Shown here in pieces: positions 21,001 to 27,000 of a DNA stretch of 64,000 nt; position 1 is the first letter of the stretch, and the number at the start of each line of letters is the position of its first letter. The position numbers are program-made. Origin of the DNA: Candidatus Aenigmatarchaeota archaeon (lineage in GTDB: Archaea; Aenigmatarchaeota; Aenigmatarchaeia; CG10238-14; SCSR01); contig JAVZHQ010000001.1 of assembly GCA_038998335.1 (NCBI GenBank), positions 160,001 to 224,000 of the forward strand, written 5' to 3'.

Positions 21001-24000
21001 ATGCAACTCTGTACGTGAAATTTGTACCTTGCTTTACTTGCGCAAAGATGATAATAAATGCAGGAATTAAAAGAGTGGTAGCAGAAAAAGACTATCACGA
21101 CTCAGCTTTGACAAAAAAATTCTTTAAAGAAGCAGGAGTTAAGCTTGAAATAAAGAAAAAAGAAGTGGAAAAGTATCCAGACCAAGAATAATTTTTCATA
21201 TTTTCTTTTCTCCCAGAACTTTTTCTTCTAGAATCTTTTTTAATTCCTCTGTACTTTTTCCAAAATATCTTTCAAATTCAGGCGTAGTCGTGATAGTTTT
21301 TGTTCTCCCAGCCTTTTCTGTTTTAATTAAACCTTTTTTTTCCAAAGCTTCTACATAACCATAAGCCTTGTTTCCTTGGTACTTTACTATTAAAGACTGT
21401 TTTATAGGCTGCTTCACAGCAACTATTGCTAAGGTTCTCATCATCCCATTACTTAAATCAGCAAAAGGAGCAAGCTTAGCTACTTTTTCCCTATACTCTT
21501 TTTTAACTCTTAACTCAAAGCCTTCTGGTGTTTCAACCAACTCTACGCCTCTATCTTCTTTACTTAACTCTTTTTTCAACTCCTCTAAAAGCTTTTTAAC
21601 TTCTTCTTCTGAGCCTATTCCAACTACTTTTGAAAGTTTTTCCAGGCTTAAAGGTCTGTCAGAAACGAATAGCGCAGCTTCAAGTAAAGCTTTTAGGTTC
21701 ATTTTCTCTTAAATATTTAATTTTTTTTGAAAAATTTAAGCATAGAAATCAAAATTTTAATTATGATGGAACTAACAAAACTAAGAGTTTACAAATTCTT
21801 GGTAATTTTCTACGAGAAGTTACATTCGATTGAGAAAATTTTCTTTGGAAGCGAATATTTTTATAAAAAAGCAGAAAAAATTTGTTGCAAAGCTGAAAAA
21901 ATAATCAAAAATTACAAAAGTTTGAAAAGATTTGAGTAAAGTTGTAGCCTAACTACTCTTTTTAAATAGTTAGAGAATTTATTATTAATCAATTAATATA
22001 AAAATTTAATAATACTTTTTTCTTTTTTTAGATAATTAATTTATGTTTAAAATAAATTCAATAAGTAAAAAATTAAATGAAATTTTCTTTGCGTTTAAAA
22101 CTTTTACAGCTATTCAAATTTTTTTTCAAAAAAATTGAAAAAATAAGAAAAAAATTACTTGGTTTTTGCTATTTTGTGCCTATTATGAAAACTACTAGCA
22201 AAATAACAATCCAATTAACTAGCTGTCTTATAAATCTCCTATTAAAAACTTAGATTTTCCTACCTCTATGACTAATTCTGGGTTTAAAAAAATCAAGATA
22301 AGGACTGTATATGGGAGTTATTATGTCTGTTACTAGTGCTTGAACTAGTTGGGCTGTTGCAATACTAAGACAAAAGCTAAAGCTACTGCTATCACGTTCT
22401 GTTTTTTCATAAAATCCATGAATTCTTTAAGAAAACTCATTTGTTCAGCTGAACTTATATAATGAACTTTAAGCTTAATTAACTTACTAACTTAAGCTTA
22501 CTCATGATTTTTTGGTTATGAAAATATCCTTAAAAAAATCTTCTTGCTCAGTAACTACTTTTTCGTTTTGCTCTAAATGAAGCAAGGGAACAAAATGGTC
22601 TATTATTTGGTCTCTGTTCCAATCTTCAACTATTTGACTAAACTTTATTTTATTAGCTTTTAACTTTTGCATAAGCTCATCAATTTCATTCATCACATGA
22701 TTAATCTTTTTTGTTATGTCTTCCTCGCTTATTTGGGCCTGAATTCTAGCTCTCCACATAACTCTTCTTTGGATTTTTCTTTCTCTTACTGCCAAAGCCT
22801 TTCTTAAGGCATTGATAAGCTCTTCTAAGGTTACTTGTCTTTTTGGAATTCTTTTCATAGGCAAGCCTAGTTGAACTAAGTTTGGGTCTATACCTAAGTC
22901 AACAAAAGGCTGTGCCTTGGCAACTTCTTCTACAGTCTCTTCTTCTTCGAACAAAGACAAATAATCTGCCTTAAGTCTAAGGAGAACTGCTGCTACAAAA
23001 ACAATTTTTGCGGGAATTCTAAAATCAAGCTCCTGAATTTTTTGAATATATCTTAAAAAACTATCAGCCAACTTAACCAAATCTATATCCCATGGGTTAA
23101 GGTTTTCTATACTTACTATATGATAAATTACTTCTTCCCAGCTTTCTTTCTTAAGAATTAAATCTAAGATATTTTCTTCTTGATTCATCCTGGCATCTCC
23201 AAACCTAATATTTTTGACTCACCTCTATCCATGGTTACACCATAAACCCTATCCCCATACTTGATAGTTTCATCGTTATGAGTTATAACGATAAACTGAG
23301 CTTCTTTTGAAAGAGATTTTATCAATTCAGCAACTTTTCTTGAGTTTTCTTTGTCCAAAGCAGCATCAACTTCATCTAAAATGTAAAATGGAGCAGGCCT
23401 ATAGCTCTGAACAGCAAAGATAAAAGCTAAGGCAGTTAAAGCCTTTTCTCCTCCTGAAAGTGAATCTATGTTAAGTAAAGTCTTTCCTCCTGGGTTTGCT
23501 TGAATTATTAATCCTGACTCTAAATCTAAAGGATTCTCTAGCTCAAGGCTTGCGCTTCCGCCTGTCATCTTCTTGAATATTTGATTGAACTTTTCGCTCA
23601 ACTCTTTCAAGCATTTGTTAAAGACTTCTCTTCTTTTCTCTTCTATTTTTTCGATCATGTCTAGAACAGCTTTTTTCTCTTCTAATATTTTTTCATACTT
23701 TTTCTTGTACTCATCAAACTCAGCTTTAAACTTCTCGTATTGTTCTATAGCTTTAAAGTTTACTGCTCCCAAAGAGTTAAGCTCTTTAACAGTTTGTTCT
23801 ATAGCTTCTTCTAAAGCCTTAATTCCTTTTTCTATTGGTTTAATTTCACCATACTGCAAAGCTTCTACTTTTAAAGTTTCAAGCTCAGCTTCAATCTTCG
23901 CTTTCTGGATTTTTAGCTTGTTCAGCTTTGTTTGAATGTTAAGTCTTTTTTCATAAGCTCTTTTTCTCTCGTTTCTAAGTTTATCAAGCTCAAACTCAGA

Positions 24001-27000
24001 ATCTACCTTAATTTTCTCAAGGTCGATTATTTCCTTAGTCTCTTCTGCTTGGGAATACTTCTTCAACTTTTCCTCAAGCTCTTTTATTTCATTTTTCAAA
24101 ATTTCGTTTTCCTCTTGAAGCTTTTTCTTAAGCTTAAGATATTCTTCAACTTCTTCCTTAGCAGTTTCTACAGCTATTCTTGGATGTTTTCTTACAAGAT
24201 AACCTCCTGTCATAGCTCCACTTCTTTCTATCAAATCTCCGTCTAAGGTGACCATCCTAACCTTTCCAATTCCTATTGCTCTTGCAACCTCTAGATTTTC
24301 AACCAAAAGAGTGTCGCCAAAAACAAACTCTATAGCTGGTAAAATTTTTTGCTCGCACTTAATAACTTTTGCAACGCTTCCAAAAGCTCCTTTTATCCTG
24401 AAAGATTTTTCCTCAAGCTTTCTTGGTTTAATTTTGTTTAAAGGAATGAAAGTTGCCCTTCCTATCTTTTCTCTTTTAAGATAGTCTATGCAAAAACTTG
24501 CTATTTCATCATTCTCTACTATTATATCGTTAAGATGAGGACCTGCTGCAATCTCTACAGCAAGCTGATAATCTTGCGAAGTTTTTATCAAATTTTTCAA
24601 AGTTCCAAGAACTCCTTTTAAATTAAGGCTTAGTATTGCTTTCACGCTTGCTGGCACTTCTTCTTCTCTGACTTCAATAGTTTGTAACTTTTCTATTAGC
24701 CTATCTAACCTTTCTATTTCTTTCAAGTTTGAGTCAAGTTTATCCTTGTTGAAAAGGATTTTTGTTCTTAAGTAAGAAATTTCTTTCTCTACCTCAACTT
24801 TTTTTGAAATTTGAATGAGCTTGTCAGCAAGCTCTCTTATGCTTTTTTCTTTTTTCTCTAATTCTTCTTCTATCCTTTCAAGTTCTTCCTGAACTTTTTT
24901 ATTCTCTTCTTCCTCTTTTGCTATTTCCTGATCTAAAGTTTTCTGCATTTCTTCAAAGTTTTTTATTTTTCTAAAAATCAAGGAAGCTTTAAGAGTTTGT
25001 AATTGCTTTTGCAAAGTTTGGTATCTTATCGCAGCGTTTCTCTCTTCTTCTAATCTTTTAAAAATCTCATAGCGTTCAGTAATTATTATTTCTGCTTCCT
25101 TTAACTTTTGGTCTACTGCCTCTAATTCTCTTTGAGCTTTTTCTTTTTTATCATTATATTCAGCTATACCAGAAATTTCATCTATTATAAACCTTCTTTC
25201 CACAGGGTTCATTTCTATTATGTTTGTAACATCACCTTGCAGTATTATGTTATGACCATCAGGCCTAATTCTTGCTGAAGAAAGAACTTCTAGAATCTTT
25301 TCTCTTGTTGTAGTCCTTCCCTGAAGCTTGTAGATGGAAACTCCTTTTCTGTTAACTTTTCTTGTTATGGAAATTTCTGGTTCATCGAAAGGAAATTCTT
25401 TGTTCGAATTATCAAGGTACAAAGTTACAGAAGCATACTGAGCAGGAGCTTTTCCATTACCACCATGAAAAATAAGCTCGTGAAGCCTTTCTGCTCTTAA
25501 ACTTTTTGCTGAAATTCTTCCTAAAACGAAGCATACAGAATCTACTATGTTTGATTTTCCGCTTCCGTTTGGGCCACAAATTATATTGAAACCTCTAAGT
25601 AAAGGTATTGAAATCTTCTTGTTGAAACTTTTAAAACCTTGTAAGGTTAGTCTTGTTATGCAAGTCATTACTTTTCACTTTGTAAGTTAAATAACCTGAT
25701 AACTCTCATATATTTATTGGAGTTTAAAACGCAAATATATTTCTGAGCAAAAAAATAATTAAAATTGAGTAGTATGAAAGAAAAGCTTTTATTTTTCGTC
25801 TTATTCTTTTTATTAACTTTTTTGGTAAGCATAAACGGTATTCCTTTTGTCGAAGTTCCAGCAACGCTTAACGAATCTTTGGTAGAGATTTCAGTTTTCA
25901 AAATAAACGAAAAAGTTATAATAAGAGTAAACGTTAGCGATACAGAAAATGATGTTCAATACGTTTGGTTAAACTTAACCGCTAGTAATGGAACATTGGT
26001 TTTGATAAATGAACTTATGACTAATACTTCTATAGCTTGTGGTGAAAATTGTTCTGTTTGGGAGAAAAATTATACTATAGCTGGAGGGGAGCCTGCTGGA
26101 ACTTGGGTTATTAATGTTACGGCAAACGATACTTCTGGAAATACTGCTAGCAATTCAACAACTTTTAACGTTAGCAAGTATATTGAGCTAACAATTTCTC
26201 AGGCTTTGATAGAAGGTATATCCTTTGGTTTGGTTAATCCTGGAACTGTAGGTAAACCTGCTTTGAACAACTCAGGTTTGCCTAACGGCGGAACGCAATA
26301 TAACCTAACACTTGGTACTTCCTCAAACGTAAACGCTGATTTTTACCACAGAATAAACGAAACTCATTCAAGTATATACATAAATGAATCTTCAAGTAGA
26401 ACAAGTGAGCTTGAAGGGTTTTCTTCCAACACTACTTTATCAAGTGAATGGAAAATTATGGGCAATTCTTCGGTAAATTGTAGTGCAATATTTCCAGGAA
26501 ATAGTTGCTGGGTTAGGTATTTTATAGATGTAGAACAAGGTACTTCTTCTCAATATTTTGAAAGAAGGTATTGTTTTTGCGCTGTGTATGAAGGAGGAGA
26601 CTATTCACTTTGTGGATATTGTTAACATTAGTGATAATCCTTATAAGATAAAAAAACCAAATTTTATTCATGGTAGTAGAAATAAAACTTAGGTACCTTG
26701 TACCAGTAGTTGCATTTTTAGTGTTAGCGTGTATAGTTAAATCACAAGAGAAAATCACAGGTTCAACAGAAATATCAGCAAACGTAGGCCAATATCTTGC
26801 TCTAAATCTTTCCAGCGATCTTTCGGGAGGAATTTCTTTTTCTTCAGTAACCCCTGGAAGTCAAAATAATATGGCTACAGGCAATCAAGGACCCGATAAT
26901 TGTACAAAGTATTGGGTTGGAGTAGATCCATCTTCTAATCTGAATGTAAATATGTGGCATAAAGCAAATCAAAGTATGAAATACGGAATTAATGAGATAT

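Follow-up and report, generated by a model that had tools for sequence, protein, structure and literature searches.

A half-length Smc with ordinary ScpA and ScpB in Aenigmatarchaeota and three further phyla

The window, a stretch of 64,000 nucleotides from a Candidatus Aenigmatarchaeota genome (contig JAVZHQ010000001.1), encodes an Smc protein of 827 aa whose arms have about half the usual length. Its ATPase, joint and hinge are intact, it is the sole copy, and its arm is under purifying selection. The kleisin and kite subunits are of normal size, and the arm length is tightly held across four phyla. On the favored reading, with a probability of roughly 0.7, Smc-ScpA-ScpB is here a functional housekeeping condensin. 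Each of its arm strands would be shorter by about 175 residues, lost chiefly from the hinge-proximal half; the complex would run through the usual cycle, and its operon would have been transferred from DPANN archaea to Bipolaricaulota. That the short-armed complex extrudes loops is inferred.

The smc locus and its products

The locus comprises the following features, given as positions in the window:

21196..21702, minus strand: scpB, kite subunit, 168 aa, 800 bp beyond scpA
22155..22440 (low coordinate approximate), minus strand: frameshifted mscL-like remnant between scpA and scpB, outside the complex
22502..23188, minus strand: scpA, kleisin of ordinary length, 228 aa, start overlapping the smc stop
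23185..25668, minus strand: smc, ATG start, encoding a canonical Smc of archaeal type (827 aa, arms about 170 aa)
25165..25668, minus strand: N-terminal head, residues 1-168, with Walker A (32-39), arginine R58 and Q-loop Q144
24679..25164, minus strand: N-terminal strand of the arm, 162 aa (residues 169-330), helix interrupted at 285-295 (24784-24816)
24175..24678, minus strand: hinge, residues 331-498, with conserved glycines G484, G488 and G489
23641..24174, minus strand: C-terminal strand of the arm (residues 499-676), helix interrupted at 535-546 (24031-24066)
23752-23856, minus strand: joint, residues 605-639, within the C-terminal arm strand
23188..23640, minus strand: C-terminal head, residues 677-827, with signature (737-742), Walker B D765/E766, D-loop and H797

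The 827-aa frame is a canonical Smc next to scpA and scpB, which confirms the earlier note's description of intact heads and hinge with both partner genes adjoining. It passes the equivalog cut-offs of TIGR02169 (771 bits, cut-off 729.4) and TIGR02168 (578.9, cut-off 567.35). Pfam finds SMC_N and, at residues 351-465, SMC_hinge (PF06470; 104 bits, cut-off 22.5). ScpA matches PF02616 at 58.7 (cut-off 24.6) and ScpB matches PF04079 at 133.9 (cut-off 27.4). With regard to Wadjet/MksBEFG systems, in which a JetC/MksB-type SMC shares its operon with a JetD/MksG nuclease, the genes next to smc are scpA, scpB, a dCMP deaminase gene and an NFACT gene. The split ABC ATPase head is complete, with Walker A, Q-loop, signature, Walker B, D-loop and H-switch. 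These motifs are invariant or nearly so across 38 Smc sequences of the phylum, and N637 of the joint is invariant. In the two closest comparisons dN/dS is 0.02-0.09 in all regions and 0.02-0.04 in the arms. Relatives at 90-99% identity are labelled Ca. Aenigmatarchaeota.

The most related solved structures are those of Pyrococcus and Bacillus Smc and of Smc1-4. The trees held no SMC5/6-like sequences. The hinge matches Pyrococcus structure 4RSJ (E 9e-35), and the P. yayanosii head-joint structure 5XEI is the best sequence match and the second fold match. The AlphaFold model (mean pLDDT 82.5) has head, joint and hinge, with 154 helical residues in the N-strand. Its helices and breaks, together with the 5XEI alignment, show an antiparallel coiled coil with a head-proximal joint. 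Archaeal-type Smc-ScpAB (TIGR02169; Pyrococcus 5XEI, 5XNS, 4I99, 4RSJ) has the same head motifs, joint, hinge, ScpA, ScpB and operon order, but an arm of about 342 aa (Euryarchaeota, Asgard) instead of 170.

The only hinge of this genome belongs to the 827-aa Smc. The second strong SMC_N match is a separate, Rad50-like gene, an 811-aa frame on another contig (C2) with a CPVC hook. No ParB_N match is present in the genome. Identity with Rad50/SbcC is rejected for the 827-aa protein, which has a hinge in place of the CxxC hook and scores far below the cut-offs for Rad50 (88/700), RecN (67/408) and archaeal ASRP (117/300). These three and Lamassu LmuB (about 650 aa with coils of about 20 nm, according to a passage of PMC10586767) also have short coils but, unlike the present Smc, lack the SMC hinge, ScpA and ScpB.

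Arm length in Aenigmatarchaeota and other phyla

Arm length was taken from domain anchors, on one scale for all groups, and not from total protein length, the source of the previous estimate of about 170 aa. That estimate is borne out: the strands measure 162 aa (N) and 179 aa (C), with a mean of 170.5 aa. The usual Smc arm, which is not a defining trait, has about 340 aa; on this scale eight Firmicutes give 343.5-347 aa. The statement that the arm is two superhelical periods shorter than in Bacillus stands only as an approximation, as the difference of 174 aa (344-170) comes to 1.9 periods if the period is 91 aa and to 1.76 if it is 99 aa.

Aenigmatarchaeota arms are 154-174.5 aa long (median 170, n=70 distinct sequences). 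A recount over 150 genomes of the phylum gave 146 hinge matches, spread over 145 genomes. Frames of 790-880 aa, from 28 families, hold 125 of the matches, and none lies at 1100-1250 aa; the remainder are two frames of 924 and 1020 aa, seven above 1300 aa and 12 below 790 aa. The frames above 1300 aa are rejected as long-armed Smcs: each of the seven scanned proteins has an intein, sitting after the Walker A lysine, and a short arm. The half-length Smc is the sole hinge-bearing Smc of the phylum sample and its standard one, as proposed earlier. An artefact (a deletion in the assembly or a pseudogene) or an accessory gene (an SMC of defence or repair, with the full-length condensin overlooked) deserves next to no credence. 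This reading draws on the sources being metagenome bins or a few closed genomes, and on the five genomes without a hinge match. Against it stand the recurrence of the length across families and in single-contig genomes (G114, G271, G272, L261), the purifying selection, the lack of a second hinge, and the separate Rad50 gene.

In profile alignments with long archaeal arms, the short N-strand falls on the 182 columns of 385 that lie nearest the head, and the short C-strand on roughly the last 155 of 395. The arm break aligns with a conserved break motif of the long arms, and its origin as a new fusion scar is not supported. As it is about 40 aa away from the hinge, a fold at this point would probably fail to join hinge to head. 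The modeled arm is about 23 nm long, against 49 nm for a full-length arm (PMC5526789).

The half-length arm is common to four phyla: Aenigmatarchaeota, Nanohalarchaeota, Undinarchaeota and Bipolaricaulota. It is the rule in Nanohalarchaeota (167-173 aa, n=25) and in the bacterial phylum Bipolaricaulota (164.5-178.5 aa, n=64). The Undinarchaeota figure (168.5-170.5 aa, n=24) comes from proteins so labelled; the genome-by-genome survey did not extend to Undinarchaeota or Korarchaeia, and Altiarchaeota and Huberarchaeota were left out. Among 101 Bipolaricaulota genomes, 79 have a single hinge and 90 have no ParB_N match, and no hinge lies in a frame above 1044 aa. Their smc loci include scpA in 50 of 53 cases and scpB in 49 of 53. 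An 842-aa relative labelled Heimdallarchaeota was set aside as probably misbinned, as its cluster representative matches at 100% a locus among Bipolaricaulota-type genomes. The literature searched holds no report of a short Smc in these phyla.

Genome size is rejected as the cause. In Nanoarchaeota, with genomes of 0.5-2.1 Mb, the arms are long (frames of at least 1089 aa account for 92 of 97 matches), and the equally small Micrarchaeota genomes keep them as well, while Bipolaricaulota genomes of up to 2.9 Mb carry the short Smc.

In Iainarchaeota, a zinc hook replaces the hinge of Smc, on arms of about 230-245 and about 335 aa. No natural hook-bearing Smc is reported in the literature searched. 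The 831- and 773-aa Smcs of this group were considered as 170-aa arms and rejected, as they have no hinge and reach the CPxC hook after about 245 and 228 aa.

Origin and probable transfer of the short form

Bipolaricaulota and Nanohalarchaeota group together in the Smc tree with support 100/100, and in the ScpA and ScpB trees, which held no ordinary bacterial homologues, with SH-aLRT 99 and 95. A clade uniting Bipolaricaulota and three Smcs of bacterial type is rejected at p-AU 0.005. The agreement of the three subunits points to the takeover of the whole smc-scpA-scpB operon by Bipolaricaulota from a nanohalarchaeotal-like source. The recipient would have been the ancestor of Bipolaricaulota, where this is the only Smc found. 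If so, an entire bacterial phylum acquired core chromosome machinery from DPANN archaea. The archaeal-type Smc of cyanobacteria is a precedent in a bacterial phylum, but it is full length (342-343 aa arms) and comes from another donor, grouping with Methanosarcinia/Halobacteria sequences.

A clade of Aenigmatarchaeota, Nanohalarchaeota and Bipolaricaulota has SH-aLRT 98 in a quick mixture tree but is not recovered as one root side in a smaller, careful LG tree. The short form may have become fixed in the common ancestor of Aenigmatarchaeota and Nanohalarchaeota, or perhaps in an older one shared with Undinarchaeota. The hypothesis that every short form goes back to one origin is not rejected (p-AU 0.22). 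This would suit a frozen product of streamlining, one tolerated deletion in a small-genome ancestor with a normal motor and a chance fit to the 91-aa ladder of arm lengths described below, an explanation that is unlikely but deserves some weight. The arms of Undinarchaeota and Aenigmatarchaeota can be aligned over their whole length with hardly any gaps, and many DPANN arms, of 300-330 aa, fall off that ladder. Against this explanation, genome size does not predict arm length and ScpA is of full size. Loss in several successive steps is suggested by P0255, a short Smc (158 aa) with a separate place in the trees, and by forms of 228-263 aa that sit among long ones.

Permitted arm lengths and the proposed function of a short condensin

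Engineered B. subtilis arms function only at 253-267, 321-373 and 407-435 aa (PMC5344682). At 136-174 aa, 34 of 39 constructs had zero colony area, four had about 0.004, and one, of 158 aa, had 0.089 (PMC5344682), in line with the earlier note, according to which no functional B. subtilis construct below 253 aa is reported. The Mini-Smc of Bürmann 2017 (PMC5344682) likewise carries the hinge on a shortened head-proximal arm. It is engineered and non-functional at this length, in contrast to the natural short Smc, which is the sole Smc of whole phyla. The failure of truncations of nearly the same design indicates that length alone is insufficient.

The favored condensin would stand two steps down a ladder of allowed arm lengths spaced by about 91 aa (about 345, 255 and 170). 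Natural short arms from the four phyla fall within 162-176 aa, the viable 253-267 minus 91, in 148 of 183 cases and outside it in 35; this match was seen only in hindsight, and the sequences, being related, represent at most two or three independent events. The ladder is unclean, with 19 of 146 measured representatives having arms of 300-319 aa, a zone non-viable in B. subtilis. One step down is the 238-aa class of Bürmann (Smcs of about 980 aa), also a naturally shortened canonical Smc, which has well over 100 rows in Table S4 against three for the 163-aa class. This 163-aa mode rests on three of 3,337 sequences (GI 339756830, 735013947 and 501265882 in the table); the three have arms of 173, 160 and 159 aa (Table S4, PMC5344682). 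The first has the domain layout of intein-bearing nanohaloarchaeal Smcs, the second fits a short Smc of about 810 aa, and the third, with shorter heads and hinge, may belong to another SMC subfamily. Aenigmatarchaeota are not the sole owner of the mode, and their suggested ownership is not supported in that form, since the other three groups have the same arm; the table, which it was thought might name the taxa, gives none.

In the proposed cycle, ATP-driven head engagement would open the zipped arms, a DNA segment would enter between them and be handed to the kleisin side, and hydrolysis would zip the rod again. Loading would proceed without ParB. Arms of about 23 nm rather than about 49 nm would take shorter steps and bend DNA more sharply.

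With a persistence length of 50 nm for DNA, a half-turn is estimated to cost about 10 kT in a ring of about 18 nm and about 5 kT in one of about 34 nm. This cost would fit a condensin by descent that no longer extrudes, an ATP-gated DNA clamp or bridge whose lumen is too small for a bent segment. The failure of such arms in B. subtilis in vivo (PMC5344682) agrees with it, and no archaeal histone to pre-bend DNA was seen in the Bipolaricaulota genome G271. A clamp is nevertheless improbable: the protein retains its joint, Q-loop, arginine and hinge glycines as well as the ancestral break in the arm, and arm length stays within about 25 aa across phyla, which a passive clamp would not obviously need.

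There is no agreed account of how SMC arms move DNA. If segments are captured inside the arms, both step size and the cost of bending DNA should scale with arm length; elbow-folding models require a bend by which the hinge can reach the head. A natural half-length condensin puts both to a direct test, and the engineered equivalent did not work in B. subtilis. Such a test comes within practical reach with the Bipolaricaulota copy, as the operon already works in a bacterial phylum that includes small closed genomes. A broader reading, for which the odds appear about even, is that canonical Smc-ScpAB with arms of about 23 nm does extrude loops, as the shortest natural complex to do so and the third rung of the ladder, and that it came to run a bacterial chromosome after transfer from DPANN archaea, apparently without ParB. 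With the hook-bearing Smcs of Iainarchaeota, both of the variants that Bürmann engineered would then exist in nature, and the motor would need arm phase and not ring size.

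The window Smc and its arms

23185..25668, minus strand: smc open reading frame, 827 aa, with SMC_N and SMC_hinge domains

The earlier note described a short Smc with heads and hinge beside scpA and scpB. This is borne out by the two domain matches, by a score above the curated cut-off of TIGR02169 (the archaeal-type Smc model) despite the short length, and by the conserved motifs. Across 38 Smcs of the phylum, little or no variation is seen in Walker A, R58, Q144, the signature, D765/E766, the D-loop, H797, the hinge glycines or the joint asparagine. The stop codon of smc is overlapped by scpA, and scpB lies 800 bp further on. 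The dN/dS of smc is 0.02-0.09 across all five regions, calculated from the two closest relatives (94% and 90% identity); two more distant pairs are partly saturated. The source genome (1.0 Mb, 90% complete) has a single SMC hinge, and its second SMC-like gene encodes a hook-bearing protein of Rad50 type with 811 aa.

Arm length was taken as the mean of the two strands, with head and hinge boundaries anchored with HMMs following the methods given by Bürmann 2017 (PMC5344682). The strands of the window Smc measure 162 and 179 aa, giving a mean of 170.5 aa, so the earlier estimate of about 170 aa stands; eight Firmicutes Smcs have arms of 343.5-347 aa on the same scale, in line with the 344 of B. 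subtilis. In the AlphaFold model (mean pLDDT 82.5, pTM 0.48), the helices of one strand cover 169-284 and 296-333, and those of the other cover 496-534, 547-604, 616-633 and 640-702. At 0.15 nm per residue, the modelled arm is about 23 nm long, while a full-length Smc arm is given as 49 nm (PMC5526789). In profile alignments, the retained arm is the head-proximal part including the joint, and long archaeal arms share a motif to which the paired break (285-295 and 535-546) aligns. These alignments place the junction of the shortened arm no more than about 40 residues from the hinge, without fixing its exact position.

A broken mscL-like gene with frameshifts lies between scpA and scpB (22155-22440, minus strand), and locus L044 has an intact 95-aa MscL at the matching position. 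Clustered upstream of smc (25765-29339) are genes whose products are probably secreted or at the cell surface; two of these proteins were scanned and matched no Pfam family. Another bin holds two short smc copies (L040 and L047); their identity to the window Smc is 99% and 90%, and they likely reflect mixed strains.

Distribution and history of the short arm

Aenigmatarchaeota: the short length proposed as the rule of this phylum was confirmed. A hinge search of 150 genomes gave 146 matches in 145, with 125 frames of 790-880 aa, two of 924 and 1020 aa (arms 172.5 and 167.5 aa), seven above 1300 aa, 12 below 790 aa, and none at 1100-1250 aa. Six of the seven long frames and one named locus were scanned; all have an intein bearing a LAGLIDADG domain directly after the Walker A lysine, and arms of 154-171 aa. 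The seventh (G048), incomplete in the fetched locus, has an arm of 172 aa. Among 70 distinct sequences from fetched loci, arms range from 154 to 174.5 aa. Of 81 loci, 66 had an scpA gene and 27 an scpB gene; the flanks of many of these loci reach just 1.5 kb, and some loci are duplicates. Inteins after the Smc Walker A lysine occur in L048, L072, L079-L083, L280-L282 and the protein representatives P0128 and P0255, with a patchy distribution in Aenigmatarchaeota and Nanohalarchaeota; an intein is probable in eight Nanoarchaeota frames of 1650-1710 aa as well.

Other phyla: short Smcs outside Aenigmatarchaeota also turned up when 1.84 billion representatives were searched with a profile. In Nanohalarchaeota, 70 genomes gave 61 hinge matches in 60, with 47 frames of 833-968 aa, 11 below 800 aa, and three of 1391-1393 aa with arms of 167-170 aa. 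The 24 Undinarchaeota-type Smcs measured have arms of 168.5-170.5 aa; this set, counted by protein, comprises those labelled Naiadarchaeales, Naiadarchaeum or Undinarchaeales and unlabelled close relatives. Bipolaricaulota, labelled from records so titled (many read 'uncultured Thermotogae'), have one hinge each in 79 of 101 genomes and no hinge match in 22. Their frames are of 823-1044 aa (75) or below 790 aa (4), the longest being open upstream in GC-rich DNA with arms of 165-166 aa. Here smc belongs to an smc-scpA-scpB operon with bacterial neighbours, and it is the sole SMC_N match above cut-off in all five genomes checked. Long frames prevail in Nanoarchaeota (at least 1089 aa in 92 of 97 hinge matches; of the five shorter ones, two stop at contig ends and another two are at most 1.1 kb away from one) and in Micrarchaeota (mostly 1100-1200 aa, in a sample including the unpublished genome G470, on which nothing here depends). 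The short-armed P0255 (951 aa, arm 158 aa) is placed apart from the main short clade. Three others, P0137, P0138 and P0193, branch beside Nanohalarchaeota and Bipolaricaulota, and P0179 is a further short-armed Smc.

ParB_N had no match in the source genome or in 90 of 101 Bipolaricaulota genomes; 11 had any match, six above cut-off, and two inspected by eye had no parA neighbour among ORFs of at least 150 aa. Bipolaricaulota may do without ParABS loading of Smc. Histones were found in all four archaea checked and not in the Bipolaricaulota genome G271.

Trees were built on the columns of head, joint and hinge. They group Bipolaricaulota with Nanohalarchaeota, at a support of 100/100 in a 31-row LG+G4 tree (bootstrap not fully settled), and of 100 in both a 54-row quick mixture tree and a 118-row FastTree. 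ScpA and ScpB trees, which contain no ordinary bacterial homologues, give the same grouping. A clade of Bipolaricaulota Smc with three bacterial-type Smcs was rejected (p-AU 0.005). Aenigmatarchaeota joins the pair with SH-aLRT of 98 (mixture tree) and 99 (FastTree), deep nodes being unsettled in the 31-row tree, and Undinarchaeota is placed elsewhere with weak support. One origin for all short arms is compatible with the data (p-AU 0.22). Transfer of smc appears to have run from archaea to bacteria, because the Bipolaricaulota Smcs are nested inside DPANN sequences.

Arm-length modes and a proposed smaller stroke

Bürmann 2017 reports natural arm modes of 238, 341 and 515 aa, possibly also 163 and 423 aa; Table S4, which gives GI numbers and no taxa, has arms below 190 aa in 3 of 3,337 rows (PMC5344682). 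Row 339756830 has its HeadN end at 725, hinge at 883-1045 and HeadC at 1232-1372, row 501265882 has a HeadN of 150 aa and a hinge of 146 aa, and row 735013947 is compatible with a short Smc of about 810 aa (PMC5344682 Table S4). Three nanohaloarchaeal Smcs with inteins have the first layout: their HeadN ends at 718-731, their hinge runs from 876-886 to 1045-1055, and their HeadC starts at 1226-1236. The second row is probably from Korarchaeum, and the GI range of the third presumably includes DPANN bins of 2015. From these layouts, short Smcs were therefore already in Table S4, without names or discussion in the parts of the paper drawn on here. The 163-aa mode had been assigned to Aenigmatarchaeota; the short arm is indeed standard there, but four phyla have it. 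No account of it in Aenigmatarchaeota, Nanohalarchaeota, Undinarchaeota or Bipolaricaulota was found in the literature searched, outside which supplements and subscription papers could name taxa. One study includes DPANN Smc with the coils removed, as far as its text was drawn on (PMC8665677), and a term search within another found neither 'DPANN' nor 'shorter' (10.1101/2024.01.07.573240).

Viable B. subtilis arms are of 253-267, 321-373 and 407-435 aa, with a period of 91 aa (PMC5344682). The next window on this period is 162-176 aa, and 148 of 183 natural short arms measured fall inside it; a main rival reading holds that the short length is a frozen accident. Among B. subtilis constructs of 136-174 aa, colony area was zero in 34 of 39, and the 158-aa construct reached 0.089, like the weak 343 and 344 constructs and far under the 1-2.4 of good ones (PMC5344682). 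The other main rival is a clamp that does not extrude. On the reading preferred here, the short Smc would act as an ordinary condensin whose stroke is smaller. In the segment-capture model, DNA is taken up between opened arms (10.1101/464701). Half-length arms would about halve the lumen and about double the DNA bending cost (an estimate based on DNA stiffness), and an elbow would be unable to bring the hinge onto the head if it lay 40 aa away from the hinge, as here. The short complex would discriminate between SMC models, segment capture and elbow folding alike.

Hingeless and hook-bearing Smcs

Smcs with canonical heads and joint that lack a hinge occur in Iainarchaeota and other archaea (L283:2653-5082, L284, L285:2695-5010, L286, L287, L271, L092, L273, L275, L276) and in Pacearchaeota (L279). 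Neither a hinge match nor CxxC was found in those of L272, L278, L290 and L291 (928-932 aa) and L292 (1084 aa). The full-length Smc (1187-1189 aa) of the Collinsella/Coriobacteriaceae loci L115-L118 and L120 did not match the hinge HMM used, and its hinge is possibly degenerate. A central CPxC is present in 11 of 16 hingeless Smcs, two of which match PF04423 weakly, just below cut-off, and a structure model of a hook-bearing Smc has a helix-loop-helix hairpin at this motif. They represent a natural form of what Bürmann engineered as Smc(Zh); no report of a natural one was found in the literature searched. ScpA is present in all five genomes with a hook-bearing Smc that were checked. The Iainarchaeota sample is dominated by frames of about 990-1040 aa, and hook-bearing arms measure about 335, 245 and 228 aa.
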